A stretch of DNA of 64,000 bases, from positions 20,336,001 through 20,400,000 of the forward strand of contig NC_043016.1 in the NCBI RefSeq assembly GCF_006345805.1, in the 5' to 3' direction. Source of the stretch: Octopus sinensis (taxonomy: Eukaryota). Positions 2,791 through 60,800 of this stretch are shown piece after piece. How positions within the stretch are numbered: position 1 is the first letter of the stretch; the number at the start of each line of letters is the position of its first letter. The position numbers and the translations under genes were made by a program. The notes below the pieces were generated by a model, which did not search any database, was not told the DNA's origin, and saw only the letters and a program-made list of their open reading frames with translations.

Positions 2791-4943
2791 ATGTTTAGTA
2801 AGAATGTAGGCTATTAAAATGTTTTCTCGATATTTATGCCTCAATTGTCAATTCCCATCACACGGTTGTTTTTCCTCACATAGCTATATAAATTATTTTA
2901 TTTTAAGGTCTATAGATCTTAGAATAAAATAACTGATATTGCTACGATGCCAAAAAGATCAGTCTGCTTTGTTGCACTTTGTTGGCATTCTGCAAGACAA
3001 TATATTCAGTGACAACTTGGCATTGGATACTAGAATTAGTAGAGTAGACAAGATGTTGGCATCAATCAGTCAATTAGTAATCTTGAATGCTGACAGGTAA
3101 CTTGTTTGATAATGTTGGATTACAAATGAGTTTAAGACAAACATGTAAACAGGCACCAGGAATTGTATACAATTATTATATTTGTGAGTATGTGAGCAAG
3201 CTAGGCCTAGGGTAGTATATCCAAGTTATCAGCAAGCAAAGACTTGAAGTTCACCAGTAGGGAATATCTCCAGTGGGAATAATAAAATAGGTTGTTTTCT
3301 TCTATTAATGATAGTGCAGGCTAATGGAACATGTGCAGTTTCTCACACAAGTGGGATTGGAATACAAGTTCCAGATGAATAAGGAGTTCTCGAGGAAGTC
3401 ATTTTGATGATTCCAGTATCTCTAGATAAAGAAGAATAGTCATTTCGGAATAGGTAATGACTGTCCCCATAATGGGAAATGCCTATGCAAAAATATAGTA
3501 TACAAATGTCATATCTATACATGTGACAGTACTAAATAGATTCTTCTTCTAGTTTTTAAAAACATAGATTCTTGACACATAAACATTCATTCATTGATTA
3601 TAAATCAATGTCTTCAACAATACTGGCTGAGTATATTTGGAGTTTGGTTTTAAACTTGAATGAAATATTATAGGTACTGTACTATTTTATATAGGTGAGT
3701 GACACTAATACACATATGGATCTAATCAAATATTACTGGAAGATGATACATCTCATATACAAAAGTAATAATAGTGGGAAGTGGAAATATTGTTATACTA
3801 ATTCAGTAATGCAACATTAAAGATTATATTAGGCATTATTAATTCTCTTCTAACACCTCCCAATATTTTTCTTCATACTACTTGGTTCTTAGATTACTTT
3901 TTATCTAATACCTTTAACAAATGTCATATCCCCTAGTTGCTGCTTATATAATTTGTAACTTAATAAATCATTGCAATTCAAATAATATCCCTGCATAATG
4001 TATAAAAGATTTCAATCAACTTTGAACTATTATTTTGTTATGCAAGTCTATATTTGAAAAAGAAATAATTGTTTATGCTATCTTACTATGTGCTTGTATA
4101 ACAGTATATAAATATATGTGAATGTATAACCTGTATCACAGACATGAACAACGTTTCATGTCCACACACTACACATACCAACAAGAACGTAAAAACACAC
4201 ATGCAGCTTCACAAATAAAAATCAGGCTGAGTACAAAAATATTTTTACATGCAGAAACACACACACTATCTAACACAAACACACACACAATCAGTAAACC
4301 CACCTACCTATACATATACACTTAAATAACATGGACAATCACGTTAACTCTCTTTCACACACACAAATGATTGTAATGACATTCAACATTGCATCACCGT
4401 GGTTAAAATTTGATACTTCCTTTAATAGTTTTCTTCTCATTTCTCTTTCCTTTATAATTATATTTATGGCTGCTTTGCCTCTTTACTCATAACGTCCTCA
4501 AAGTTATGCACGCACATACACACACATTGCAAACATGGTATGCAAAATTAACCATTTTCAAAAAAGTCTGCACCACACTAATATTAACCATGTACACACA
4601 CACATACACTCACACAAAATAGATGTGATGCATAAAAATACGCAACCACCCAGTGCATTCTTCCTTGAAGAGTTTGATTAATCTGTCCACTGGATCCATA
4701 AGGCTCACTAATAATAAAATATGCACTCTACATGATTGTGTATTGACCTGTATTTGAACAATGGTCATTTCTGATTTATGCCCTACATATTCCAGATATA
4801 CATGTGTGTGTATATGTGTGTGTGTGCACATATGTACGTACACACACACAAACAGAAGTACAGCTAAATATAAAGTATAATATATAATATATATATAATA
4901 TATATATATATATATGTGATAATAATAATAATATATTTTATTT

Positions 4944-4980
<37 letters not shown>

Positions 4981-4981
<1 letters not shown>

Positions 4982-5370
4982 TCTTTACTCTTTTACTTGT
5001 TTCAGTCATTTGACTGCGGCCATGCTGGAGCACCACCTTTAATCGAGCAACTCGACCCCAGGACTTATTCTTTTGTAAGCCCAGTACTTATTCTATCGGT
5101 CTCTTTTGCCAAACCACTAAGTAACGGGGACATAAACACACCAGCATCGGTTGTCAAGCAATGCTAGGGGGACAAACACAGACACACAAACACACACACA
5201 AATACACAATATATACATATATACGACAGGCTTCTTTCTACCAAATCCACTCACAAGGCATTGGTCAGCCCGAGGCTATAGCAGAAGACACTTGCCCAAG
5301 ATGCCACGCATTGCGACTGAACCCGGAACCATGTGGTTGGTTAGCAAGCTACTTACCACACAGCCACTCC
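4981..5370 (-). mobile_element. Near full-length tRNA-derived SINE
   Basis: Minus strand reads tggctgtgtggtaag (A-box-like)...ggttccgggttcagtc (B-box-like)...ggtgctccagcatggccgcagtcaaatgactgaaac, then (aagagta)n tail; other copies at 8222, 29259, 38870. Confidence 0.9.
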
Positions 5371-5869
5371 TGTATATATATATATATATAACGGGAAGCT
5401 TTATGAAAATAGACAAAAGACGAAGGCAGGTGGAAAACAAACAAACAATTGTATTAGTATGGCGCTCAGGAAATATAAATAAAACAAGTCTTTAATATAT
5501 ATATATATAAATGTATACATTGATAAACACATGCACACATGTATATATACAATTTATGAGTAATAAGATGCCAAATGTCAAGAGATAATACGTACATACA
5601 ATGAGTGCTCAAGTTGAAATAGTACCTAAACTCTAGTTTTAAGTGCATGGATATGAGATCAGTCTAAATGAAGATTTCTATAAGCAATGTATTGGTTGAG
5701 TTTGGTATAGGCATAATGGAACATGAACAGGCACAGAAGTATAATAGTTTGTACTCTTTACCTTGTATTTTGATATTTTGGGATTAGGTCCCCTTCTGGA
5801 AATCTTCAGAAAAATGGTATTGTTCAATAGAGAGAGAGAGAGAGTGTGTGTGCATGTGAGGGGTCACTT

Positions 5870-6152
5870 TGCATTGCTATAGTAGCCATTCAGCTGTGTG
5901 CTGTTTGGATCTGTTATTAACATGTGGATTGGTCCTGCTAATTAAGATGGCTTCTTTTTTTCTCAAGTTCCCAATGTTTCATTCAGTAGCTCCAACAGAA
6001 ACCTGGGTGTCTTGGGTCTGGCATTTTGTAGGTGTTTTTGACTGAAACATTAGCTTAGAGGTGTTTAAAAACAACTGTATGTATACTTGTCTGACAGTAC
6101 ATCTAATGTAGAATTCATTACATTGCTACATGTGATCTTATACACCACATAG

Positions 6153-6156
<4 letters not shown>
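5870..6156 (-). mobile_element. Penelope-like element GIY-YIG fragment
   Basis: Minus strand encodes SYVVYKITCS..NEFYIRCTVRQ (frameshifted GIY-YIG motif). Confidence 0.6.
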
Positions 6157-6207
<51 letters not shown>

Positions 6208-6444
6208 CCCACTCTAAGGAATAATGTTGGATTACAGCTGTCCTTTTTTTTATATATAAAATGTGGCAGCTTTCAATAAAAAAAAGATGCTATCCTTAGT
6301 GATCTCCAAAACACTACCCTTGATGTGGAAGCTGATGATAAGAATAATTCTAATGGTGTTTGACTTCCTGGAAATAAATTACAAACTGGCAGTGAAATAG
6401 AATAGATACAGGAGGAAAAGCTGAGGGACAAAGGATCAACTTCT

Positions 6445-6945
6445 TATAGACAGACAGGTAAGAAAAGCCATACTAATCTGGGTATGGCATGGATCAATTA
6501 TAATTTTAGAAGGTCTTGAGTTGGAACAGATATCTGACAACATTTTCAATTTTATTAAGAGATCAATAGAGAACTGGAATTCATAGTTAACACCATGAGG
6601 AAAATTTTTCACAAAGGTTGTCTTTTTAAGAGAGGCATATTTCAGGGAAGTAATATGTTGCCATTGCTGTTTGTGATTTCTATGATATACACTTAACACA
6701 GATGTTACAGAAAGTGACATCAGGATACACCTTGAAAAATGAAGAAAAGTTAAATCAACTTTAAATCACCTGTTATATATAGATGACTTAAAGATCTTCA
6801 GTAAAAATAAATGTAAAATAAATGGTCTGGTTTCAACAGTGCAGATAGTCAGTAAAGATATCAGGATCAAATTCAGGATTAAAAGTGTGGCATGCTCATC
6901 ATAAAAAAAATAAAATGTAGAGTACTATCATCTGATGGTGTAGAA
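6445..6945 (+). mobile_element. R4/Dong-type non-LTR retrotransposon RT fragment
   Basis: Manual translation HTNLGMAWINY...RGIFQG...PLLFVISM...NHLLYIDDLKIFSK...SKDIRIKF. Confidence 0.75.
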
Positions 6946-7114
6946 CCTCATGAATGTTTTACCTTACTGAGTTCACAGTAAGGTAAAACAACCATTAGGT
7001 GTCATTTGTTGATAGTATATTACAGGTATGTGTACACATTCACACATACAAATAACAAATCAAAACCTTGAGATCTAAACCAGGGTTGGTTCCAGGTGTG
7101 ATGCATGTATAAAA

Positions 7115-7384
7115 GAACAGAAATGGGGTTTAAAATTTACTACAGCTGTTTTGGTACCATTTTATTGATGCATTCTTAGATTACACCCCAGCAAAAATCC
7201 ACCATCCTCAGGTAAATTTTATTGTTCATCATGTTAGTTGGTAAATAGGTCATCTAGTTTTACCTTGTCCATTTATGTGTGTTTAAAATTTTACCTGAGA
7301 ATGGTGGATTTTTGTTATGAAATAAGCTAAAAATGTATCAATAAAATGCTAATGAAACAGTAAATTCTAAACCAACTTGTGTTC
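7115..7384. repeat. Inverted repeat with a type-I hammerhead in each arm
   Basis: Arms 7115-7221 and 7284-7384; minus arm reads aaaatttac CTGAGGA tggt...acc AAAA CAGCTG TA gtaaatttt. Confidence 0.8.
7132..7220 (-). ncRNA. Type-I hammerhead ribozyme motif (GAAA mutated to AAAA)
   Basis: 9-bp stem I aaaatttac/gtaaatttt, CUGAGGA core, stem II ggt/acc, palindromic CAGCTG stem III, GUA triplet. Confidence 0.75.
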
Positions 7385-8221
7385 CATGTGCGTGAAACTT
7401 TTAGTAGTGTGGGCCATACATGTGAGGTGATCATGAAAAACAATAGTTACTCTCGTTAGGTGAAGCACTCTTTTTTGTTGAACTTAGACATACGGAACAA
7501 TATTTATATATATATATATATACATATATAATGGGTGAAGGGTTTATGTATGCAATGCACTGTATGCCTTACTTATTTTCCATAATAAATAATTTTCGTG
7601 TAATCTAAAATTAATTATTGATCATTTTCACTACCCTCATCGTATTCATGACATTTTTTTGTATTTCCCATTCCTTCATTTCTTGGTTTTAAACTGTAGA
7701 CAATCAATGTTATTTAACAAGTGTATGTAGAGAAAGCTCCTGTTAGTTTAGCAAAATAAGAAGGAAAAACAGTGAATCAATCGATTTCCTGTTCTTTTTG
7801 AGGGAGTTTTCCAGAGAAATGCAATTTTTTTTTTTTGCTTGTTTTCAGTCTTAGTAAGTAAGAGCAATGGTGTTAGTTTCTTCATATTCTATTATTCTCT
7901 ACAAGAAGAGTGTCAAAACAAGAGGCAAAACAATTGAGTGAGTAGTAGAAGAAAGAGAGAAAAACAGATTTTTTTACTGCTTGTCTTGGAGCTGTGTTAA
8001 GCCAGTAGATACACTGTCAACACATTTTCGCCTGAAGCACTGGTGTTTTTACTGCCTTGTGTAGCAGAGATCAAAGACTTACCTATTCAAAGGACTTAAA
8101 GCTTTCCTCATAATCAAACAGATTTAGACAAGAAATGAATGTTTAGTCAATTTGCATTTTTAGCTTCATTGCTGAATCTGGTCTATTTTGTATGATTATT
8201 CAGTACTGAAGATGTATATTT

Positions 8222-8558
8222 TATCTTCTACTTGCTTCAGTCATTAGACTGTGGCCATGCTGGGGCACTGCCTTGAAGAATTTTTACTGAATGAATTGAC
8301 CCCAATACTTTTTTTTTAAACCTGGTACTTATTCTATTGGTTACTCACACTGAACTGCTAAGTTAGAAGGACATAAACACACCAAGACTGGCTGTCAAGC
8401 AGTGCTAGGGGATAAACACAGAATCACACACACATATATAAGGCTTCATTCAGTTTCCATCTACAAGGCTTAGGTAGGCCTGTGCCTACAATAGAAGACA
8501 TTTACTCAAAGTGCTATGCTGTTGGACTGAACCCAGAAGCAAACTTTTTACCACACTG
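8222..8558 (-). mobile_element. tRNA-derived SINE, diverged copy
   Basis: Aligns by eye with 4981..5370. Confidence 0.8.
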
Positions 8559-29582: not shown

Positions 29583-30349
29583 AACTCAAAACTAACAGTT
29601 CTTCCATGAAAACTATAGATAAAATTCCAGAAAATCTTGAAGAACAAAAATGACTATGGGGGGAAAATAGTAAGTGGAGAAAATGAAGGTAGAAATAGAA
29701 TTACTAAAATTTAAAGTGACAAACAGTGAACAAATATGATCTGTGGTAGAAGGCAACTCTGGAGTTAATCAAGCTACCTGAGAAACGTGCTACAATTGGA
29801 TGCCAAATAAAATTATTTTTGGAAAACCGATTATAGCAGCAACTCCATCAATTCCTAGGGATATCTGAAGAAAGAATTTTATTCCGAAATATCATATCAG
29901 ACTATGGATGATTAGATTACAACAGTTATTATAGTCCACCATTTGTATTATGTAATGCATTGTTGTGTCATTCAAAATATTTCATTCTTTACAAACAATA
30001 CGCAATGCTACAAGCGAACTATGATACTTTCCTATATACATATATCTATATATTTCCTCCTTGACTCTCTTGATCACACGTGACTAACAGCCATTCTCTC
30101 TTTCTTCCACTTCCTTCCTAAAGACAAGATGTGCTTTCATCTGTCTCTTCTCAAAGCTCGTCTTTCTAGCATTCAGCACTTCACATCATCTTGGCTTAAC
30201 AGCCCTCACCGTTTGTTTTTACTATTTTGTTCTCACTGTCCTGTTTTTGTTCACCTTCCGCAAAAAATCTCAAATTTTATTTAATTTGCTATGCGGGAAG
30301 GACTGTTTTAATGAAGTTACATCTTGTCCTTACCTTTGAAACGCTGGTG

Positions 30350-31045
30350 ACATTGACGTGTGCGTGTGTGCATGTGTAGGTGTATGGATTATGGTGAAGG
30401 GGTGCTGTAAAGTGGTCAGTGCTAGTGTGTGCAGGGGTGGTGTGATGTGGTGGTGGTGTGGTGTTGGGGTGTGGGAAAAGCGTGAGTGGGGAAGCAAGGG
30501 TGGGGTCTAAGGGATGAGGTGGGGGTGAGATGGGATGTATAGGGATGGTGGGGTTGGAATGTGTAGGAGTAGGGTAACAAGGGAGAGAGTGGAAGGGAGA
30601 AGGTGGGTAGGACTGAAAAGAGGAGGCAGTAGGTGCCAGAGCAAGAGAGGAGGTGGGTGGGAGGAAGTAGGTGTGAGAAGAAGAGAAGAGAGAGGAGGTC
30701 TCGGAGGTTGTGGGCTTGTTTGAAGGAGGAGAGGGGTCGGTAAGAGGAGATATGCGAAGTGAAGGAGTCAGACTGGAGTCACCGGAAGGCTCAGAGAATG
30801 GTGTGTTGGAGAGGTAGGGTGGTAGGTGAGGGGAAACAGGAGACAGTGGGGTAGATGTGGGGAAGAGAGCAGATGCACAGTCCATAGAACATGCTCTGGC
30901 AAGGGCAGTGTAGATAGTGGTGAGAGGATATCCACGTAGGATGATGTGGCAAGTCATGAGTTGAGACTGAGTTTCAAAGTCGTGGTTGTCACTACAGAGT
31001 CTGCATAAACAGAGGAATTGGGAATAGGGGATGGAGAGCTGGTCT
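30350..31045 (-). mobile_element. Penelope-like element fragment (RT thumb plus pyrimidine-rich tail)
   Basis: SIPYSQFLCLCRLCSDNHDFETQSQLM...LRGYP (PLE thumb motif). Confidence 0.7.
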
Positions 31046-31049
31046 CCTT

Positions 31050-31672
31050 GTTTAAGTTGGTGAATGCTGCCATAATCCTTGCCTTCAGTTCATCTTTGGT
31101 GTTACAAAGAGTTTTGTTGGTCTCTCACTCAACAGCATCCTGCACATAATAATCAAGGGGGTTGCAGTCTGGGGAGTTAGGTAGCATGATGTTAGGGAAG
31201 ATGTGATTGTAGAAATTGTTTGACAGCCATGACTGGGTTCTCTTGGTTGTGTGGCATGGTGCAAAGTCCTGTTGCCAGACATAGGGTCTTCCAGCAGTCA
31301 CCCTCTTGACCCAAGGCAGCACTACCCACTTCAAGCACTTGATGTAGGCCTCTGTGTTGAGAAAAAGGCCATGTGGGAAGATGATTGGAGGTATAACATC
31401 GCCATCACTAGTGATCACTCCAAACACTATGATTTTGACTGGATGTTTAATTTTTATCACTCTCAGAACATGTTTTGAGGACTCAGACTGACACCCAAAC
31501 ACTCTGAAACGTTCGTACTGGAGCTTCTGGTGTAAATGCCAAGCAGTACAGCATGTCATTTCCAAATTTCAGATAGAGTGAATTGCATCATAATGCTGTT
31601 TTTCTCACAGATGATGTGCAACTGACCCTACTACACTGTGTAGTTGACAAAATAAAAGACAAAAACAAACGT
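31050..31672 (-). mobile_element. Second maT/Tc1 copy
   Basis: ORF 31125..31565 VFGVITSDG...YVWQQDFAPCH...PNSPDCNPLDYYV; homologous to 28477..29254. Confidence 0.88.
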
Positions 31673-34912: not shown

Positions 34913-34954
<42 letters not shown>

Positions 34955-35269
34955 ATATGGCCATGTGTTTCAGTCTTCTTTTGTGTGTGTATGTATGTAT
35001 GCATGTGTGCTTGCCTGTCCTTATTACCTATGTATCTATCTACTTATCTATCTGTTTACTTACATATCCATTTGCCTACTTATATACATATATATGTGTG
35101 TGTGTGGTGTGTGTGTGTGTGTGTGTGTATGTGTATATATGGCCATGTGTTTCAGTCTTCTTTTGTGTGTGTATGTATGTATGCATGTGTGCTTGCCTGT
35201 CCTTATTACCTATGTATCTATCTACTTATCTATCTGTTTACTTACATATCCATTTGCCTACTTATATAC

Positions 35270-35305
<36 letters not shown>
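34913..35305. repeat. Near-identical tandem duplication of about 183 bp between (GT)n tracts
   Basis: atgtgtatatatggccatgtgtttcagtc...tatacatatatat at about 34947 and 35129. Confidence 0.9.
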
Positions 35306-35399: not shown

Positions 35400-35735
35400 T
35401 GGGGATGTTTCATTAATGAAGACATACTCTTGTACTTGTCTTCAGGTACTTGGATAAAATGTGGGTGTCAAATCAACCTAGTGTGCCTCTATGTTGGTCT
35501 TTGAGATGTTAGTAGAGTATGAAGAACTGTTTTCTGTTATCACATTGTCTCAAATGTCATTTAGTCTCTCTGCAATGCTTCTAGATGTCTCACGAATGTA
35601 TGTCATGTTCTTGTCTTTGCAAGCACCCTCTATGCACCTTATGCTGTAAACTACATTTCTAATTCTACAGTTAATGCCAGGGTTAATCTTACATGCCATG
35701 CAGTTCTCATTGGTACATGTGGTTTTCTCAAAGGG
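35400..35735 (-). mobile_element. Penelope-like element GIY-YIG fragment
   Basis: CTNENCMAC...NCRIRNVVYSIRC...YIRETSRSIAERLND (ORF 35550..35768). Confidence 0.8.
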
Positions 35736-35892
35736 GTACATCCTACACACATGCACACACACACACATCTATATAATACATATTTTAAATATAAATAAAC
35801 AAATACATAAACAGGACATTAAATGATGATGATATCTAGCTATCTATCTATCTATCTAAACGATGATGATGATGATGATGATATATATATAT

Positions 35893-35920
<28 letters not shown>

Positions 35921-35923
<3 letters not shown>

Positions 35924-36428
35924 TCTGGGTTATTTCCCTTTATCAGCACAGAATAATTGCTCGGCTAGAGGTGGCGCTGCCAAATTCCTGTTCAAAATAT
36001 ATAGTTTTCAAAGTGACAACTAGTCACTGATTTATAAATTAGAAAATTACTATTTTTAAATCTCACAACATGAGACATTCAGCAACAGTACTTAATAGAA
36101 AAGATTGCTTGCCAATATAACAGGAATTCAAATGAGAATTTGGCAGAGCCACCTCTAGCTGAGCAATTATTCTGTGCTGATGAAGAGAAATAACCTAGAA
36201 ATCTCAATACACAGATATTGTTTTGAGCTGAGTGCGGGTGCTAGATTCTCTTGTTTGAAAATATAAGGACACAGATCATGTCATATAGCCAGCTGGAGAC
36301 GATGTCTCCTGGGGCTAAATTACAGCAACATTAGTCCTAAACCAGTAATGCCATGCTTTGGTGGCAAACAGTCTTTACTACAATGCTGAATATCTCATGT
36401 TGCGAGACTTAAAAATAGTAATTTTCTA
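35921..36428. mobile_element. HHR-bearing ORF-less unit plus inverted, permuted partial copy (retrozyme/pLTR-like)
   Basis: 35921-35987 is inverted at 36137-36204; 36041-36085 is inverted at 36385-36427. Confidence 0.7.
36173..36213 (+). ncRNA. Type-I minimal hammerhead ribozyme motif
   Basis: ctgtg CTGATGA agag aaataa ccta GAAA tctca ATA^ cacag; the inverted copy has the paired stem II ggg/ccc. Confidence 0.7.
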
Positions 36429-36684
36429 AAAGTAAACAAATAAAAAATTTTTACAGAAATTAACGAACTCACTTGAAAATAATTTTTAAAAAAAACATTA
36501 AAATATTGTCTATTTAAAGAAAACTAAAATATGATACTTACTGTACAAACAACTTACATTTTTGAAATCACATTCAGTTATAAATATTTCTAAATCAATA
36601 AAATATTGTGTACTTCAAAAAGTCAATGTTTTTTTTCCTTCTTAGAGAGCACGAAGGCTATGTGTGTGAATATGTCATAGATAT

Positions 36685-37063
36685 GGAGGTGCAAAGGACC
36701 AGTGGTTAGAGCAGTGGACTCGTGGTTGTAGGATGACAGTTTTAATTCCCAGACTGGGCGTTGTGAGTGTTTATTGAGTGAAAAACACCTACTCGTAAAA
36801 GCTCCACGAGGCTCCGGCAGGGGGTGGTGGCAAACCCTACTGTACGCTTTCACCACAACTTTCTCTCACCCTTTCTTCCTGTTTCTGTTGTACCTGTATT
36901 TCAAAGGGCCAGCTTTGTCACAGTCTGTGTCACTGAATTTCCCCCAGAACTACTTTAAGGTTACACATGTCTGTGGAGTGCTCAGCCACAGTAATTTCAT
37001 GAGCAGGCTGTTCTGTTGATCGGATCAACTGGAGCCCTCATCGTTGTAACCAATGGAGTGCCA
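36685..37063 (+). mobile_element. tRNA-derived SINE (third family)
   Basis: tRNA-like head ggaccagtggttagagcagtggactc...ttaattcccagactggg; non-coding body. Confidence 0.7.
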
Positions 37064-37974: not shown

Positions 37975-38810
37975 TAGGCATTGTCAGTAAGTGCATTCTT
38001 GATACTATCCAGTCAGATATTAGAAGGGCCCATATTAATGGGATTCCACCACAGTTCTGATTGACTAATTCCATGGAATCAAAAATAAATAAATAAACCT
38101 GCAAATTCACACAGTTCGACATTGTGGACTTGTACCCTTCTATATTTTTCCTGTCAGACCTAGATTTTGCTAGGCAATTTACCAGTATAAGCAACCTTGA
38201 TGTCAGAATCATCATAGGCATCAGAAAGTCAATTTTGGTTCTCAATGATTCCTTTTGGATGAAGAAAGGTGATATACTGTTCAACATTTCTATGGGGAGC
38301 TACAGGGTTAGATCGGTACCCTTATCATGTTATTTCTCTTGGATACCTTCAAGAAATGCACACAAACACACAAGTTGGCCCATTTACAGGGATGACAGCC
38401 TGAATTTCTCAAATCATATGAATGGCTTTGATAAAAATATTCAAAGAATTTGGCTTGTCATAACAGATACCACCAACTTGACCATGGCTGACATTCTAGA
38501 TATGACCCTAGACCTGAAAATGGACAAGTACTACCTTTACAGGAAGCTCAATGAGGAAACTGTGTACATCTACAGAAGCTTTAACCATCCACACCCCCAG
38601 TTGTAATTAGAAACCTAGTTTTAAGCTTCAGCAGAAAAAATATCTAAGCTTCCAGCAGAGAGGGAGATATTCAATAGAATCCCTCACCACCACTACAAAT
38701 ATACAATGGCAAGGTGTGAATTTCCTGAGAAATTAGCATATGGAGGATCACCAACCTCCACCTCTGCACCCAAAGAGGAACAAAAGGAGAGGTAATCTGG
38801 TTCACCCCTC
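37975..38810 (+). mobile_element. Penelope-like element RT fragment
   Basis: FTQFDIVDLYPSI, FNISMGSY, YRDDSL, LDMTLDL..YYLYRKLNEETVYI. Confidence 0.85.
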
Positions 38811-45024: not shown

Positions 45025-48000
45025 AGTACTGGTTGTCCAACTCCACAATACCCTAACCTGAGTGAAATACAGGATATCTCACACTTTTGCAGAAAATTAT
45101 GCCTCACAGAGGAATTTTTTGACAAAGAAATCAATAACGATTAAATCAATGGTTCGTAACAAAAGGCAGAAACAAAACTTTGGACAAATTTTGTGACTAC
45201 ATTTCAATCTTTCCTTATAGTGAACTTTCACAACCTAAACCCAAACCCAATACTAGTAAAAGGGGATGGGAAATCATCTATGAGTTACGAAACAATTATG
45301 ACATCACAATCAAGGAAGCAGTACTGTCATCATTATGGATACTGAACAGTATAACTACTCTGTATCTCACCTTTTACAAGATACTACCTACTATTCACAA
45401 ACAATATGGATATTATCCATAATGTTAAAGTGATGCCGATAATGATCTCGGATCACAACATAATAGAGCTGTCTATGTATGGACCAAAAGCCCCCGTAGA
45501 CACACAGCCTATACGAAGCATCCACCATCTCTCCAACTTAAACTTTCATAAAGCAAACTGGAAGTTGATTGAGAAAGAGATCCTCAAACAGGATTGGCCT
45601 AAATGTCTCTCCACACCGGACATTAACATGAAACACAAACACTTCATGTCCATAATACAAGCCATATGTGACAAATATGTCCCAGTGTACAGGGCCAGCA
45701 CACACAAAAACAGGATCCCTAGAGAAAGGAGGATTCTTATGAGACGACGGACAAGGATTGCGAACCGCCTGAGCAAGCACACCAAAAGTGGTGAGAAGTC
45801 TCGGCTTGAGAGAATGCTAATGGAAATTGAGAAAAATCTGCATCAATCCCATGAAAAGGAGAGAGCAGATAAAGAAGTTTGGATAATAGAAAATATAAAA
45901 TCAAACCCTAAAGCTTTCTTTAAGTTTGCCAAAGAGACAGCCACAGTGCACCAGAGAATAGGACCTCTCTTCCAAAAAGATGGCTCTCTCACAGGAAATC
46001 CCACAAGGATAAGTGAAATACTGAACGAACAATTCCAAAGTGTGTTCACTACACCTCTGGGACACAGGCAAGTAAACAACCCAGACGAATTCTTTGCCAC
46101 TTTACCTGTGGCCAAAGAGGCAAAAATTGAGTACATCAACATTGAAGATGATGATATCACACTAGCCATAGATGAGATTAACACAAACTCAACTGCTGAA
46201 CCTGATGGATTTCCAGCGATCCTTCTCAAATCATGCAAACGAGCCCTTGCAAAACCGCTACAGCTACTTTTTCAGAGCTTCCTTGCAAGTGGTAAGCTCC
46301 CAGCCAAATTGAAAGAGGGGGTAATATGTCCTATCCATAAGGGAGGTAGCAGAGCAGATGCTAAAAATTATAGGCCTATCTCTCTGACCTCAAACATCAG
46401 CAAAGTCATGGAATGAATAGTCCACAAGAAACTAATCATGTACCTGGATTTCGACCAGGTAGAAGCTGCCTAACACAGCTCCTGCAACACTATACTGGGT
46501 GTTAAAACAGCTACTAAATGGCTCAAATGTGGATGTAATATATCTCGACTTTGCAAAAGCCTTTGATAAAGTCGACCATGGTATGATCTGTCACAAACTG
46601 CGTGGTCTCGGCAGAGGCGGAAAACTTGGAGAGTGGCTGCTCAACTTCCTAAAAGACAGAAGACAGGCAGTTGTGAGCAATGGAGCCACCTCCAAGGAAA
46701 CACAAATAACAAGCGGTGTTCCACAGGGCACTGTCTTGGGGGCCACTGCTGTTCATAGGGGCCCTTTCAGACATGCCTTCAGTTGCTACGATGGCCACCC
46801 TTGCTAGCTATGCAGATGACACAAAAGTCTCCCACACAATACAAAACCCTGAAAATATTGCGCATCTGCAACAGGAGTTGGATAAAATATATAGGTGGGT
46901 GGAGGACAACAACATGCAGCTTAATGCAGGTAAGTTCCAGGCCCTGCGCTACTGGCACACAAAGGTAAACGATATGCAGACTGGATACACTGGCCCAGGA
47001 AGAATTGCAATCCCTGAGTGAAAATCAGTGTGTGACCTAGGCATTGACATGAGCAATGATGCATCTTTCCAAGTGCATATTACTAATCTGGTGATAAAAT
47101 GCAGACGGCTAGCTGGATGGATTCTCCGAACTTTCAGAACAAGAGAGAAGGAGACACTGATGGTCCTCTGGAAAACATTCATCCTCAGCCACTTGGACTA
47201 CTGCTCCCAACTATGGTCACCACCCAATATAAAACTAACAGCAGAACTCGAAGCAATTCAGAGAAGCTACACAAAGAAGATCGTCTCAATGCAAAATATC
47301 AGCTACTGGGAAAGACAAAGTATTAAACCTCTTCTCCCTAGAGCGGAGGCGGGAGAGATATGCGGTGATATACATCTGGAAAATCCTGGAGGGTCTTGTC
47401 CCAAACTTTGGCATTCAAAGTTACCCCAATCGCAGAACGGGGCGCCACTGCATGGTGCCAAAGATTCCAACATCACCATCAAAATACAGGACCAGATACT
47501 GCAACAGCTTGGGTTTCAGAGGACCACAGCTCTTTAACATCCTCCCTAAATGCCTAAGAGACTTACATGGTGTGGATGTGAGTTTCTTTAAAACTAAACT
47601 GGATCTCTTCTTGTCGGGAGTCCCAGATGAATCTACCTCACGACAGGAGACGCAGATGCGGGCAGCAGCATCGAACTCCCTTGTTGATCAAGTGCCACGT
47701 ATCAGAGGTGGATTCACATATTAGTGTAGCTCATTCAGCGGTGGTGCCCCAGCATGGCAGCGGCCTTCGGGCTAAAACATTTTTAAGGATTTAAGAGCAA
47801 TCAGAACAATTACCAAATTAGACACACTCATTTGCCAACATCGAAATAATTTAACAGCAAAGGAATGTGACTACATAACAAACTTTAATTGCAAAACCAG
47901 CATCCTCTATGAACTTCCAAAAATCCACAAGAGCAAAATTATTACTGAAGCTTGCAAAAAGTCCTCTTCAACCTGCATCACTGTGCCACATCCGACTGAT

Positions 48001-49258
48001 CTCAAACTGAGACCAATTGTGGCAGGCCCAAACAATGAAACACACAGATTAAGCAACTTTATTGATATCATCTTAAAACCAATATTTAAACACATACCAA
48101 GTATTGTAAGAGATGACCTGGACCTATTAAATCATCTCCTCAAACATACCAATAAAGACATTTTCATTGTCTCCTATGATATAATAAACCCTTACACTAC
48201 GATCCCACATGAATATGGACCGGAAGTCATTAAATTCTTGCAAGAAAAATATCTCAATGAGGTCCTGGAAAGAATAAAAAAAGAATTCATCATCAAGGGC
48301 CTTACGTTTATTCTCCAAAACAACTTTATGAATTTTCATAATAACACCTACAGACAGGTATCAGCGACTGCAATGGGTACTAAAGTTGCTCCTACTTATG
48401 CAAATCTGGTGATGGCCTACCTAGAATTACAAATTTATGACAAATCCAAATATAAGTATGGCCTGTCTTTCCACAAATACCTGTTGGAGAATTGGAAATG
48501 CCACTTAGATAATTGCCTCATCCTATGGTCCCACACACTCAACCAACTTATTGACTTCAAAAACCTAATCAACAGTGTCAACAACCATATCCAATTTACA
48601 ATGGAATATAGTCAAGACCAACTTCCTTTTCTTGACATTCTTCTTATTAAAAAAGGCACCAACATTGAAACAGATACCCACTACAAACCAACTGATTACA
48701 AACAATACCTTCTGTTCACCTCCAATTACCCAAAGCACACGAAGACAAACATCCCCTTCAACCTAATGAGAAGAATCTGCACAATTGTCTCAAATCATAG
48801 AACACGAAATAAAAGACTCCAAGAAATAAGAGCAATTCTTCTTGAAAAACATTACCCAGCATCACTAGTTAACAGTGAAATAGAACGGGCCCAGACTATT
48901 ACTACCCAAGACTTATGAAAACCAAAACACACTCAAGGTACAGTAAATAACCTCCCCTATCTCTCAATACACAATCCAAGAAATGCAGAAGCTTACACAA
49001 TTATATACAAGAACATCCTACAGCTGAATCAAGACCCACGTCTAAAAAAGTACTCGCAACCCATAAAATAATAAAAGCAAAAGACAACCCAAATCCCGAA
49101 AAAACCTACTCACCAATGCAAAATTACCTAACACAAGCCCACCGACAAAAAATGTAGTCGTTCCAACTGCAGGACTTGCATCCACCTCATTGAAGGAACA
49201 ATGTAAAAATTCCAGTTGGGACACGCTTTTGTCATAAAAAATAACTTCACCTGTGCAT
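45025..49258 (+). mobile_element. Penelope-like element (RT plus Cys linker), split by a LINE and 3'-truncated
   Basis: YELPKIHK, RPIVAG, SYDIINPYTTIP, YRQVSATAMG, LPFLDI (ORF 47983..48918); KKCSRSNCRTC linker; N-terminal part ITIKEA...LQDTTYY at 45300-45418. Confidence 0.92.
45419..47795 (+). mobile_element. 5'-truncated CR1/jockey-group LINE, relatively young
   Basis: SDHN, NYRPISLTS, YLDFAKAFDKVDH, GVPQGTVLG, YADD, LDYCSQLW, stop at 47724; short 3' UTR and (ttaagga)n-like tail; few frameshifts. Confidence 0.95.
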
Positions 49259-51879: not shown

Positions 51880-54695
51880 TGATTGCTTGTAATGTTAATC
51901 AGCAAAATTGGCACTTACTGGGAAAATACCATGAATCAAGTTTATCCTGAAATGTTAATAAGAATCGAATGAAACAAGTTTCATGTAAATCAGTAAAGTA
52001 GTTTTCAAGATAGTAGAAATTTTCAGGGTATAAATACCCGAAATGGTGCATAATAGGAAAATGTTCCGAAAATTAACTTCATCCTGAGAGGGAAGAAACT
52101 CTTATCTTTCTATTAGACAGTGAGTTGACAACAAAATAAAGTTTTTTTTTTTTTTTGTTTTTACAATTTCTATTTTCATTTTTATTAAATACAATATTTT
52201 AATCATTTACAAGTATTTTTAAGTGAATGTGATTTCAAAAATGTAAGTTGTTTGTACAGTAAGTATTTATATTTTAGCTTTCTTTAAACAAATAATATTT
52301 TTATGTTGTTTAAAATTATTTTCAAGTGAATACCATTACAAAAATTTCTTTGTGACTTATTTAAAAATGTTCCAAAGTGAAAATAAATTTAAAAATACAA
52401 TAGATATTTTGTAAAAGACCCGTTTGTAACCTCAGTGTGAAATACTTTTTTCGAGTACATTCAACATATCACCCCTCCAAAGATTTGGCTTCTATTTCTA
52501 GCATGCCCTGCTACAACATAACAGCTATTTGTGAAAAAGGACCCAAAATAGTTCTTATGTGGTAGCAGGGTGTGCAAGAAATAGCAGCCAAATCTTTCCA
52601 ACCCACAAAACAAAACTCTGTTGCTGGGAAACTCAAGAGTTTCCTGGTGATCCAACAGGTCATAGGTAGTCTAGTATTATATTAAAAATGAACTTCAATT
52701 ATGCTTGCTTCCAACGTTACACAGCCAAACTGGTGCATAATGGGAAAATACTATGAATTAAGGTCCTCCTGAAATGTGAATACAAATGGAATAAAACAAG
52801 TTTCACATAAATTGGGCAGCTGATTCTTGAGATATTGGGGTTTTTTGGGGGGTATAAATACTCCAAACAGTGCATAATGGGAAAACACTCCAAAAATAAC
52901 TTAACCCTGAAAGGTAAGAAACTAACTTTTCAATTAGACACATTACGATGAGCAAAATTCTTAGTGACTTGCCAATGAAGAAATACAAGTTGTTTTTTTA
53001 CAGTAAATGTTTCTGTTTTCGCTTTTGTTAAACACAATATTTTAATGATTTAGAAATATTTTTAAGTGAATGTGATTTCAAAAATGTAAGTTGTTTGTAC
53101 AGTAAGTATTTATATTTTAGCTTTCTTTAAACAGACAATATTTTTATCTTTTTCAAAATTATTTCAAGTGAAAAAGGGGGGGGGCATATTAAAAATATCT
53201 TAAAGTGAAAATGACTTTTAAAATATAGTAAATATTTCATAAAAGATCCGTTTGTAATCTCAGTGTTAAATAATTTATTTCCATAGGTTTTTTCAAGTGC
53301 ATTCAACGTATTTCACCTCCAAAGATTTGGATGCCATTTCTAGCACACCCTGCTACTACATAACAGCTATTTGTGATAAAGGACCCAAAATAACTGTTAT
53401 ATGGTAGCAGGGCATGCAAGTAATAGCAACCAAATCTTTCCTTTTCTGGGTAAAGGAGCCATTTACATGTGATTTCGGTGTCACATTTGTTGAAAGCATG
53501 TGAAATAATCTGGAAACGAAGAAGAAAAACTCGCGAAACAAAACGCTGTTGGTGGGACAATCTAGGTGAAGTATTTTTGAACAATTGCATCTTAGTACCT
53601 CTTAACCAAATGATGAGAAGCATCAATTCCACCTATATCAGATGCTTCCCAGGAATCATAAAAGAGTACTGATACCACTCATTTCCCAACTGAATACCTT
53701 GATTCACTTGAACTATCAAGACTGCCACCACAAAAGCTGGAATTGAAAAAAGGATTGCCTATAATTCAAATGAGAAACTTGAATCCTTCAAGGCTTTGTA
53801 ATGGAATGCACATGAACATGGAAGAACTGCACAAGAATCTCATAGTAGCAAGAATCAACACTGCCACTTTCAGAAATGAAATCATTACGATACCAAGAAT
53901 AACAATTAATCTATCTGAAGGTGAGGATATCCCTTTGCAGCAAAGTCAATTCCCAGTTCAATCATGCCAATTCTTAACGCACAAAGACAAACTATGGACA
54001 ACTTCTTGATTTATCTGGAACATCCTGTATTCCAACATGGTCAACTGTATGTAGCTGCAGAAAACGAAAGGAGAATGTCAGAGTGTTTCTGAAAGATACC
54101 CAGTCACCTAAGAATGCTATCATCAAAAGCATTTTTTTAAACAAACTGTAACAGCGTCAAAATTAGAAAATATTCCTTCTGACGTCAGAACACGGAAGAA
54201 AAAGGGAAAACTAAGACAAGTATGAATAGTTGCCTTCATTTCAATGCAATGTTGAATTCAGCCTCAATGTTTTATAACCTGAACCGTCAGTGACCCAACA
54301 GGGCCATTTGTGCGTGATATTGATGTAAATAGAAGGGTCGATGAGACTAATGAAGCAAGAGCTGAGCATCTGGCAGAACAGAGGGAAAGAAACAGAAGCA
54401 GCAGAGATCAGGAATCAGACACTTGAAGAGTTGAGACAAAAGCAGGAGACGTCTTGAATTGGATGCTCATGTGAATACAAATGGAATAAAACAAGGTTAC
54501 CACAGGTAACCAAGTAAATATTTGGGGGTGGGGATATCTTTATAAATAACCAAATGTGTGTATAATGGGGAAAATGCTTTGAAAGTAAGGTACCGCTGAA
54601 ATGTGAATACACACAAAATGACAGAAGTTTTGCATAAATTGGATCACGGTTTTGTCAGGTACCTTTGGGGACCCAACAGGTCATAGGCAGTCTAG
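51880..54695 (+). mobile_element. Composite/tandem Helitron-derived region
   Basis: 51890-52590 recurs at 52730-53440; hairpin plus CTAG ends at 52671-52674 and 54692-54695. Confidence 0.7.
53600..54060 (+). pseudogene. Helitron PIF1-like helicase remnant
   Basis: LPPQKLELKKGLPIIQMRNLNPSRLCNG...IPRI...QFPV...HGQLYVA. Confidence 0.85.
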
Positions 54696-54948: not shown

Positions 54949-55229
54949 ATCATCATCATCATCGTTTAACGTCCGTTTTCCATGCTACATGGGTTGGACG
55001 GTTCAACTGGGGTCTGGGAAGCTAGAAGGCTGTGCCAGGCCCAGTCTGATCTAGCAGTGTTTCTACAGCTGGATGCCCTTCCTAACGCCAACCACTCCGT
55101 GAGTGTAGTGGGTGCTTTTTACATGCCACCTGCACAGGTGCCAGACGAGGCTGGTAAACGGCCACGATCGGATGGTGCTTTTTACGTGCCACTGGCATGG
55201 AGGCCAGTCGGGCCGGCGCTGGCAACAGC
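54949..55229 (-). mobile_element. RTE 3' tail
   Basis: (cat)n cgtttaacgtccgttttccatgct...ggatgcccttcctaacgccaaccact. Confidence 0.9.
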
Positions 55230-56224
55230 TACTTAAACAACAATTAGTTATCTACTTATTAAACCTTTTAGAAGAATTAACCTTATTATATGATATATGA
55301 AAAATTATTATAATTAATAATTGAAATATTTGAATGTCTTTCTAAATTCATGGCAACATCTTATTGTAAAGTTCACATTAAAATTCAATAAAATTAATTT
55401 AGAAGTAATTATATAATATGTTTCTTCAAGGCAAAGATCACATGTAGAATTACCAATATTGTACAATGGTGCATAAGTAATAATGGACCATTTTAAATCC
55501 TACTTAATGTTCTTATCTCTTAAATCCCAAATGCATTTACTAAGGTTTGTAGAATTACTTTTTCTTCTATACTTAAATGAATGAAAATGATTATGAAATC
55601 TAGATTTCCATATAGTAGCAGATAACCAATATAATAATACTTATGATCTCCTGTTATTATTATCTTACACTGATATACCATATATTTTTCCTTAAACACT
55701 CATTTTCTAAAGGACATACAATTTTGTTTATTCATTTGCATTTGGTACACATAGTTAAAAAAATTTTTCACTAGTTCCCCCTCTGCAAATTAGGTGGGAT
55801 TATTATTATTAGAATTAATATTAAAGCTAGGTGATAACCTAACTGTATTATCAGAGTCATGATTACTTATAGAATCAAAACCTAGTTCAGAAAGAGTATC
55901 ATTAGAGTTATTAGATATTCCCTAAATCTCTGTTTATTGTGTGCTGCTATAATCTCCTTGTAAAGCTTTTGTATTCAACCACTAGAAATTTAACTATGGC
56001 AATTAAATAATTTCCCATATTTACTTGGAGGTGGGAAATACTTATCAGGAGCAGCAAAAAATTTTCAGGGGATATTTGAAACTATTGAATAATAGAATGG
56101 AGTATTATACCATATAAGATTTGTTGATCTATTCTTTTCATTATCTATATAAACTTTTTTTATTAGTATTACCTTTATTAACACTGGATTTTTTCCTACT
56201 GTCTTACTGTAATTTTATTCTTAA

Positions 56225-56259
<35 letters not shown>

Positions 56260-56260
<1 letters not shown>

Positions 56261-56834
56261 GCCAAGTGAGACCATAACCCATGGCCTATGCCAGTGGTGT
56301 TACCAGCCCACTTATCCGTACCTTCCCTTCATTGGACACTAAACTCTGCTTGCAAAGACCTGTTAAGGCAAGTGAAATCGAAATCAAATTCGATGACAGC
56401 ACCACTTGACTGGCATCCATGCTAGTGGAGCGCTAAGAGCACCATCCAAGCATGATTGTTGCCAGGGCCGCTGACTGGTTCCTGTGCCGGTGGCACGTAA
56501 AAAGCACCATTTGAGCGTGATTGTTACCAGTGTCACCTTACTGGCACTTGTGCTGGTGGCACATGAAAGACAACATTTGAGCAAGGTCGTTGCCAGTGCT
56601 GCTGGACTGGCTCCTGTGCAGGTGGCACGCAAAAAACACCATTTGAGCGTGGCCATTGCCAGTACCGCCTGACTGGCCCTTGTGCCGGTGGCATGTAAAA
56701 GCACCCACTACACTCTCGGAATGGTTGGCATTAGGAAGGGCATCAAGCTGTAGAATCTCTGCCAGTCCTCAGTCAAACCGTCCAACCCATGCCAGCATGG
56801 AAAGCAGATGTTAAACGATGATGATGATGATGAT
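56260..56834 (+). mobile_element. RTE 3' UTR with tandem repeats of about 66 bp
   Basis: tgtgccggtggcacgtaaaaagcacc repeated four times, then the standard RTE tail and (gat)n. Confidence 0.85.
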
Positions 56835-60096: not shown

Positions 60097-60800
60097 TTAC
60101 TTGACCCAAATCACTGCACTCCATAGTAATGTCAAAATAATCAGGCCTGTCAGTTCTAGTCCAATACTTCCCATTGAATTCAATTATGGTTTTCCTAGCT
60201 GTTAGTACTATATCAACCTCTTGGTTACTTGACCCAAATCACTGCACCCTATAGTAATGTCAAAATAATCAGGCCTGTCAGTTCTAGTCCAATACTTCCC
60301 ATCGAATTCAATTATGGTTTTCCTAGCTGTTAGTACTATATTGACCTCACATTTGGATAATTCTGAATTCTTCATAGTGAAAATTAATGCTTTATTCAGA
60401 AAGATAGTGTTGATAGATGAGTAATAATTAGAAATATCCAACTGAATGAATCTAGTATGTTTTTTATCCTTAGTGTTAATGTCAGTGAACCAACTAATAA
60501 CCTCCAAAGAATTAGATAAAAAAAAAACTAATATATTGTTCACGCTTAGGAATATGTAAATGAATAATAAATTTACTAATCTTATAAATATCTTGTTTCA
60601 ATGGGCAGATCAGCCTAACCTGTGGATCAATATTACAATTAGGATTAAATTAGTTCTGGGGGTTTTGGGAGTGTAAGGTTCAGTTCGATTTTCAACTTGT
60701 AGGTCTTCAAAAATGCCTTTGACAATTATGTTAATGCTTAGTAAATTTTCTTTGGAGGTAATTTTATAATCCTTTGTTGTTTTGTAACTAAAGAGAAGTA
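60097..60800 (-). mobile_element. Penelope-like element RT fragment with 128-bp junction duplication
   Basis: FIQLDISNYYSSI...ARKTII...FDITIGCSDLGQV; 60097-60220 recurs at 60225-60347. Confidence 0.8.

Follow-up and report, generated by a model that had tools for sequence, protein, structure and literature searches.

Non-LTR retrozymes have been described among metazoans from coral, mussel (350–390 nt), and axolotl (331/353 nt) (Cervera and de la Pena, 2020; PMC7229834), and they have been proposed to be non-autonomous derivatives of Penelope-like elements (PLEs) (for vertebrates: Li, Clavereau and Pollet, 2026; bioRxiv 10.64898/2026.07.22.740005). As criteria for assigning a repeat to them we used a non-coding monomer of about 150–400 nt with a GC content below 45%, one type I hammerhead, and self-pairing of the monomer. 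Retrozymes of this group are further marked by head-to-tail arrays, from dimers up to multimers, and by transcripts in the form of linear and circular monomers. PLE insertions often carry an inverted, 5′-truncated copy at their 5′ end and are biased toward microsatellites (PMC8557442). Head-to-head is the commonest of the PLE inversions and has been explained by self-priming, with palindromes at the junctions (PMC3846280). The purified protein of the PLE Poseidon, a predicted dimer, cuts and extends both DNA strands and starts inside its RNA, ribozyme cleavage not being needed (PMC11167929). The hammerheads of PLEs are characterized by an unpaired base after A9, and for the form with a short palindromic helix III an activity as a dimer is described (Cervera and de la Pena, 2014; PMC4209133).

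The 64-kb window (the whole stretch of 64,000 nucleotides that was analyzed and to whose positions all coordinates refer) contains at 35920–36429 a locus that resembles the metazoan retrozymes in its non-coding unit of about 350 nt, its GC content below 45%, its single type I hammerhead, its self-paired monomer, the dispersal of its copies, and a proposed mobilization by PLEs. It differs from them in that each arm holds less than one unit and in that the two arms stand head to head. By these features its membership in the non-LTR retrozymes is likely, if not complete. Two-armed insertions are absent from the available text of PMC7229834, in which the word "inverted" occurs 0 times, and from that of bioRxiv 10.64898/2026.07.22.740005, in which "head-to-head" occurs 0 times. 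A search of the literature yielded no paper devoted to cephalopod retrozymes, to two-armed retrozyme insertions, or to PLE twin priming, although the supplements of PMC7229834 and PMC8557442 may list cephalopod families.

With EN+ PLEs (Penelope/Poseidon, Neptune, and Naiad; PMC8557442, PMC3846280, PMC11167929) the locus shares an inverted, 5′-truncated, head-to-head copy, a fixed internal 3′ end downstream of the hammerhead, an AT-rich or microsatellite target, and an uncut ribozyme inside the insert; the inverted copy, and the fixed internal 3′ end together with the AT-rich target, are what we count as a Penelope-type footprint. Unlike an autonomous PLE, in which an open reading frame (ORF) for reverse transcriptase and GIY-YIG endonuclease lies between pLTRs, the locus has no such ORF: there is none in the unit, and none of at least 100 codons within 35400–36990. 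Our reading, which we hold to be probably correct, is that the locus is an old and decayed insertion of a protein-free hammerhead repeat in two overlapping head-to-head arms, written by Penelope-type priming from two ends, the template being an RNA that was circular or an uncut multimer.

Two Arms of One Unit, Head to Head

A repeat search of the window found two interlaced inverted repeats, 35919–35987/36136–36204 (69 nt, 93%) and 36039–36084/36384–36429 (46 nt, 93%). Their arms follow each other along the locus in the order A, B, A′, B′, just as an earlier note on this DNA had described it, and their local alignment scores of 52 and 36 compare with a maximum of 11 in 300 dinucleotide shuffles. 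The inverted repeats mark the places where two arms of a single repeat unit, standing head to head, overlap. The segments of this unit are named, in RNA sense, a (which ends at the cut), y, b, and x, the ring being a-y-b-x-a, and positions within the 353-nt unit are counted from the base directly after the predicted cut. The parts of the locus are the following.

35920..36122, minus strand: minus arm of 203 nt, with the end of y (30 nt), 8 nt, b, x, and a; unit positions 145–347
35988..36038, minus strand: segment x, 51 nt, which closes the ring from b to a
36123..36126, no strand: spacer of 4 nt between the two 5′-truncated arm ends, which lie head to head
36127..36429, plus strand: plus arm of 303 nt, with the end of x (9 nt), a, the uncut hammerhead, y, and b; unit positions 271–353 and then 1–228

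Both arms turn out to be longer than had been claimed: the stretch 36085–36122, previously a linker in the middle, is mostly further minus-arm sequence (8 nt followed by 30 nt matching the end of the plus-arm y segment at 21/30 positions), and 36127–36135 is the decayed end of x. The arms have their 5′ ends at unit positions 145 (minus) and 271 (plus), and only a 6-nt palindrome (36124–36129) lies across the spacer at their junction. The outer end of the minus arm lies 6 nt ahead of the cut when the letters of the family are used; the distance of about 5 nt given before is obtained if a T common to the arm and the microsatellite is counted as well.

Since the minus arm lacks 144 nt of y and the plus arm lacks most of x, neither arm can have been copied from the other. 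The part of x at 35997–36038 has no second occurrence in the window, and for x and y as wholes no other match was found anywhere in the 64 kb. A pair of overlapping MITEs whose terminal repeats would be A/A′ and B/B′ is ruled out by the ring order in the family and by arms that extend past the repeats, and a simple fold-back is ruled out by 5′ ends that are not mirror images and by the sequence private to each arm. The two overlaps of the arms (36127–36203 and 36354–36429) measure 77 nt and 84 nt when counted in unit positions of the family; that they are near-equal may be chance.

The arms differ at 22 of the 153 positions that they share (14%), with about 7% private changes in each, and two CpGs have decayed in opposite directions between them; the copy is therefore old and not an assembly duplicate. 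It is true that no contig spans the whole stretch and that inverted PLE structures are hard to assemble (PMC8557442), as one would have it if the layout were an assembly artefact or a set of chance inverted repeats. Such an explanation is nevertheless hardly credible in view of the 22 differences with their independent CpG decay, of alignment scores far above those of shuffles, and of a matching 13-nt repeat in the flanks. The copy in the window is probably inactive.

As joined from both arms the unit has 345 nt. Between y and b the minus arm has 8 nt that the plus arm has lost, and if these are included the length is about 353 nt. At their loose ends other copies are seen to keep the 8 nt of the minus arm at this place, so that the unit of the family is about 353 nt long. 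Its GC content is 37%. Over four tandem joins the longest stop-free frame has 46–56 codons, with 28–29 codons from a Met, and there is no ORF. The ORF-less unit of about 345 nt with one hammerhead, which had been obtained before by joining the two strands, is confirmed (345 nt, a longest stop-free frame of 46 codons, one motif). The circular fold of the 345-nt join has a z of −2.7 (3/100 shuffles as good) and that of the 353-nt join a z of −2.8 (0/100 shuffles as good).

The Hammerhead Motif

With the descriptor used there is one hammerhead-like motif in the 64-kb window; when the 508 nt were shuffled 2000 times, such a motif arose in 3 of the shuffles. The ribozyme parts and the fold predicted around them are listed here.

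36171..36215, plus strand: type I hammerhead motif, decayed; stem I at 36171–36176/36210–36215 (6 bp), CUGAUGA at 36177–36183, GAAA at 36198–36201
Further parts of the same plus-arm motif: stem II region at 36184–36197 (broken), helix III at 36202–36207 (palindrome lost), UA at 36208–36209, predicted cut 36209/36210
35920..35952, minus strand: second hammerhead copy, truncated, with a family-type stem II and G8 of the core changed to A; it has no cut site and no 3′ strand of stem I
36127..36259, plus strand: predicted rod that prolongs stem I on both sides of the ribozyme, the end of x and a pairing with the start of y (−44.5 kcal/mol, z −4.65, 0/200 shuffles as good)

The core is complete in the plus arm (CUGANGA, GAAA, and UH). 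Rfam gave no hammerhead at the gathering score in the whole window, nor at E up to 10 in 35700–36700, the matches obtained being microsatellite-driven miRNA/snoRNA noise only, and minimum free energy folding of the local plus-arm ribozyme gave no hammerhead junction (z −1.24). The majority letters of the family at 36186 and 36196 restore a stem II of 3 bp, all G-C, those at 36204 and 36206 restore a self-complementary (palindromic) helix III, and pairs of the rod are restored by majority letters as well. Read with these letters, the family motif is a predicted type I hammerhead with a palindromic helix III, and both local copies are decayed, the plus-arm copy in stems II and III, the minus-arm copy at G8 and by truncation. 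Two pairs of the rod, 36130/36256 and 36135/36249, are A-U in the plus arm and G-C in the family majority, and the minus arm keeps the G; these A-U pairs private to the plus arm may go back to chance decay, to hairpin repair in DNA, or to a different template.

The closing pair of stem II next to the hammerhead core is usually G10.1-C11.1. This closure was not found in the family, in which a purine stands instead of C11.1 before GAAA: between stem II and the core there is one A on the 5′ side, and on the 3′ side one A or G. The family motif resembles the minimal and palindromic-helix-III hammerheads of type I known from PLEs (Cervera and de la Pena, 2014; PMC4209133) in its unpaired base after A9, here an A, in its palindromic helix III (in family letters), and in the occurrence of the motif in pairs that lie on opposite strands at a distance of 100–700 bp. 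It is unlike those hammerheads in having a stem II of 3 bp with the extra purine before GAAA and a stem I of 6 bp that runs on into the long predicted rod, and in that the local copies are decayed.

The Family in Public DNA Contigs

Seven of 24 listed public sequencing runs were aligned to the locus; run X20 (share 0.06) and 16 others were left out. The references were the 556 nt around the locus and the stretch 35982–36392, which holds each part of the unit once. In all four DNA runs, 4,739–8,304 contigs per run match the 556-nt reference, mostly at 90–99%; the repeat family is a high-copy one, the summed depth of contigs not being taken as a copy number. Among the 32 contig pieces listed, 3 bridge the whole of x; the cut site is spanned by 21, with at least 31 letters on each side. 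Because each of the listed pieces carries 10–30 differing letters, they represent other copies. The joint from x to a (35988 to 36136) is present in 6 and 5 RNA reads (4 starts each) and in 3 DNA contigs, and the joint from y to b (36093 to 36382) in 49 and 25 RNA reads (19 and 13 starts) and in 1 contig; run X16 has neither of the two joints. All three junctions of the ring a-y-b-x-a thus occur in other copies, at the level of the family only since the records are shorter than the whole unit. The earlier note had expected both the A′-to-B′ and the B′-to-A′ adjacency in copies elsewhere. Both are indeed present beyond the locus, in different records of the family, the contigs being too short to hold both in one, and because both occur in other copies a local rearrangement or misassembly is unlikely. 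Exact-motif scans found no match in metagenome contigs or in viral contigs.

Among the top six loose ends in 6 of the 7 runs are those before 36038/36039, where the unit gives way to mixed AT-rich flanks (agreement 0.39–0.47); 42–60 contigs per DNA run and 100 and 93 RNA reads end in this way. The 3′ end of the plus arm lies at the base equivalent to this preferred end of the family directly after b. No pile was found among the loose ends listed for the end of the minus arm or for a second family-wide end.

The depth decreases from b/y via a to x, which is expected of 5′-truncated copies and would also suit the view that the arms are fragments of the terminal repeats (pLTRs) of an autonomous Penelope-like element and not a separate retrozyme. 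The hammerheads of PLEs are mostly single truncated copies, and in Schistosoma there are opposite-strand pairs 100–700 bp apart (PMC4209133); the unpaired base after A9 points in the same direction. In the locus and in other copies, however, b reaches a via only the 51 nt of x, the ring of about 353 nt has no ORF, and none of the loose ends listed reads as a common continuation out of x. We consider the arms very unlikely to be pLTR fragments.

Two further observations were made on the family at large. At 36257–36332 the depth exceeds that of the ribozyme part several times over, and 25–48 contigs per DNA run exit at 36319 and go on with a sequence that is related yet not the same; this core hairpin region is seemingly common to sister families. 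One contig of run X1 joins the end of x directly to the end of y (36122 to 35985); such a unit would have been shortened by deletion to about 144 nt and would have no ribozyme.

RNA Reads

In the two raw RNA runs, which are labeled with another organism than the best-matching DNA runs, the matching reads number 1,948 among 12.9 million in one and 1,720 among 12.0 million in the other. First mates are equally distributed on both strands, 72–77% of the matching reads continue into unlike sequence, and only 16 and 14 reads are 99% alike to the locus. In neither of these two runs was there a pile-up of molecule ends anywhere, the predicted cut at 36209/36210, where a type I hammerhead would cleave after H17, included. 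About half of the RNA reads over the core (36180) have A6 changed to C, a change that is nearly absent from the DNA run, which suggests that one or a few dead copies dominate the expression. This pattern looks like read-through of few dead genomic copies rather than like an active circle; the reads that span the joints are compatible with circles and with tandem transcripts alike.

At 36291 and 36344 about one third of the RNA reads in both raw runs have G for A, as compared with less than 2% in the DNA run, and places with such a change number 18 in the RNA runs and 9 in DNA. A-to-I editing is a possible cause, as are alleles of the other organism.

The Probable Landing Site and the Surrounding Window

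The flanks of the locus contain the following features.

35793..35805, plus strand: left copy of a 13-nt direct repeat (12/13 identical), a candidate target-site duplication
35806..35919, plus strand: left flank, beginning with the 3′ tip (about 28 nt) of a common (GAT)n-tailed retroelement and continuing as a (TATC)/(GAT)/(AT)/(GATA) compound microsatellite
36430..36442, plus strand: right copy of the 13-nt direct repeat, adjoining the 3′ end of the plus arm

The tailed fragment with its AT-rich microsatellite in the left flank is the probable landing site. The 13-nt repeat brackets this fragment and both arms, 35793–35805 being its only match with at most one mismatch on the plus strand of the 64 kb; the left copy is 114 nt away from the minus arm, and the repeat was found after the fact. 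A shared 10-mer of the same kind occurred in 6 of 500 shuffles. Directly at the two arm ends no target-site duplication was found. The end of the minus arm adjoins an unstable microsatellite with a microhomology of 3 nt. From this arrangement we infer, post hoc, that the tailed fragment came first, together with the 13-nt duplication, and that the arms were inserted later at the right-hand border of its tail, little of the flank being lost. Alternatively, the tailed fragment and the arms are the product of one joint event.

The flanks also bear on the question of whether the arms might be two independent insertions in opposite orientation, one beside or into an older copy of the other, or else the remainder of a longer two-armed array trimmed by deletion. 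The family is very abundant, the end of the minus arm, next to its unstable microsatellite and microhomology, is not among the listed ends of the family, and the plus arm has two both-sided pair changes that are absent from the minus arm, all of which could be accommodated in this way. Yet the two 5′ ends meet within 4 nt, the arms are similarly decayed and have two minority letters in common, and one 13-nt direct repeat brackets the whole structure, no second duplication being seen. We therefore regard two separate insertions, or a trimmed array, as unlikely.

The window as a whole is AT-rich (29–45% GC per 2 kb) and full of microsatellites and decayed mobile elements. The end motif of the (GAT)n-tailed element is found at five other places, at 410, 715, 41970, and 56812 on the plus strand and at 54968 on the minus strand. 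The right flank of the locus at 36469–36611 belongs to an AT-rich repeat with 88–90% identical copies on the minus strand at 52191–52329 and 53032–53171 and a further one at 53662–54006. This repeat forms a tandem of about 850 bp at 52000–53400 beside a fragment of a Pif1 helicase (PF21530, E 8e-12), from which it is inferred that the repeat is probably Helitron-related.

Decayed ORF fragments at 47776–48918 and 38097–38606 (both plus strand) and at 60208–60597 and 30289–31089 (both minus strand) are, judging by their motifs, presumably similar to Penelope-type reverse transcriptases. A Pfam scan of seven ORF fragments of the window gave a weak RVT_1 match at 47776–48915 (E 0.0013, below the cut-off) and the Pif1 domain, and nothing else. 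Other long pairs of inverted repeats, unrelated to the family, are present at 1417–1652 (59 nt, 97%), 7146–7360 (75 nt, 80%), and 55051–56765 (69 nt, 90%), the last of which sits among copies of the (GAT)n-tailed retroelement. At 34925–35288 there is an exact tandem duplication of 182 bp of microsatellite-rich DNA, which is possibly recent or an assembly duplicate.

Copying and Insertion

According to the reading that we prefer, a Penelope-type reverse transcriptase would have written retrozyme RNA into DNA, primed from both ends of one break. The first cDNA would have started at the preferred internal site of the family, the end of b, and run back through y, the uncut ribozyme site, and a. 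The second would have started 6 nt before the cut site and proceeded, likewise backward, over a, x, and b as far as y. The two 5′-truncated cDNA ends would then have been joined via the 4-nt spacer, and after the insertion each arm would have acquired its private changes (about 7%) and the plus arm would have lost its 8 nt. The template of such a reaction would be more than one unit: a circle of 353 nt, a linear multimer that keeps one uncut site and measures about 430 nt or more, or a pair of RNA molecules. A tandem or circular hammerhead RNA had already been proposed as the template, and the proposal is supported by the ring order of the unit of about 350 nt and by the B′-x-A′ and A′-y-B′ adjacencies in other copies. 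The two minority letters common to both arms favor one template or one subfamily; the two pairs that have changed on both sides in the plus arm alone may weakly point to two different templates.

Two primings from two DNA ends give the simplest account of the geometry, in which the RNA 3′ end of each arm faces the flank and the truncated ends meet in the middle of the locus. In this respect the head-to-head inversion is like LINE-1 twin priming, in which both DNA ends prime on one RNA. The segments produced by twin priming of LINE-1 abut with little overlap. Here, by contrast, the arms overlap twice, by about 77–84 nt, and the template exceeds one unit. It should be noted that one measure speaks against two-ended priming of the PLE type: the outer ends of the arms are about 119 nt apart in the unit, whereas 30–40 nt lie between the start sites described in PMC11167929 and the tail of EN+ PLEs is of that length.

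The earlier note had ascribed the inverted arm to a strand switch, that is, to a single priming in which one long cDNA from a tandem or circular RNA folds or jumps onto itself and is copied in turn. Self-priming has been proposed for head-to-head PLE inversions with junction palindromes (PMC3846280), a palindrome does lie across the arm junction here, and the two minority letters that the arms have in common against the family majority (36163/35960 and 36398/36070) would fit one template. But the palindrome is merely 6 nt long, and the 5′ ends at unit positions 145 and 271 are not mirror images. Moreover, each arm holds sequence that the other lacks, and the missing x and the missing 144 nt of y would require an extra jump and the loss of a longer intermediate. 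A strand switch is improbable on these grounds, and Penelope-type insertion from two ends remains the best reading.

A more specific form of two-ended insertion can be conceived, to which we assign rather little probability: one enzyme dimer would have used one retrozyme RNA with two kinds of start, the stem-loop site after b and a 3′ end made by the hammerhead. The basis for a hammerhead-made start is the end of the minus arm, only 6 nt away from the cut, together with the 13-nt repeat, which suggests that no flank was lost. If true, ribozyme cleavage would set the priming site of integration, a role not found in the in vitro study of Poseidon, and the two overlaps, of about 80 nt each, would have been left by a pair of cDNAs that displaced each other.

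What the Locus Means for Animal Retrozymes

In the available literature, the spread of animal retrozymes by Penelope-type enzymes from circular or multimeric RNA has so far rested on co-occurrence and on sequence kinship. Arms that are shorter than a unit, circularly permuted, and head to head would be a compact genomic footprint of Penelope-type copying. To this the locus adds one old example and one more family, whose unit has about 353 nt. Taken by itself it carries modest weight, and it would gain in importance if further copies throughout the family were to have an arm end at the same place next to the cut.
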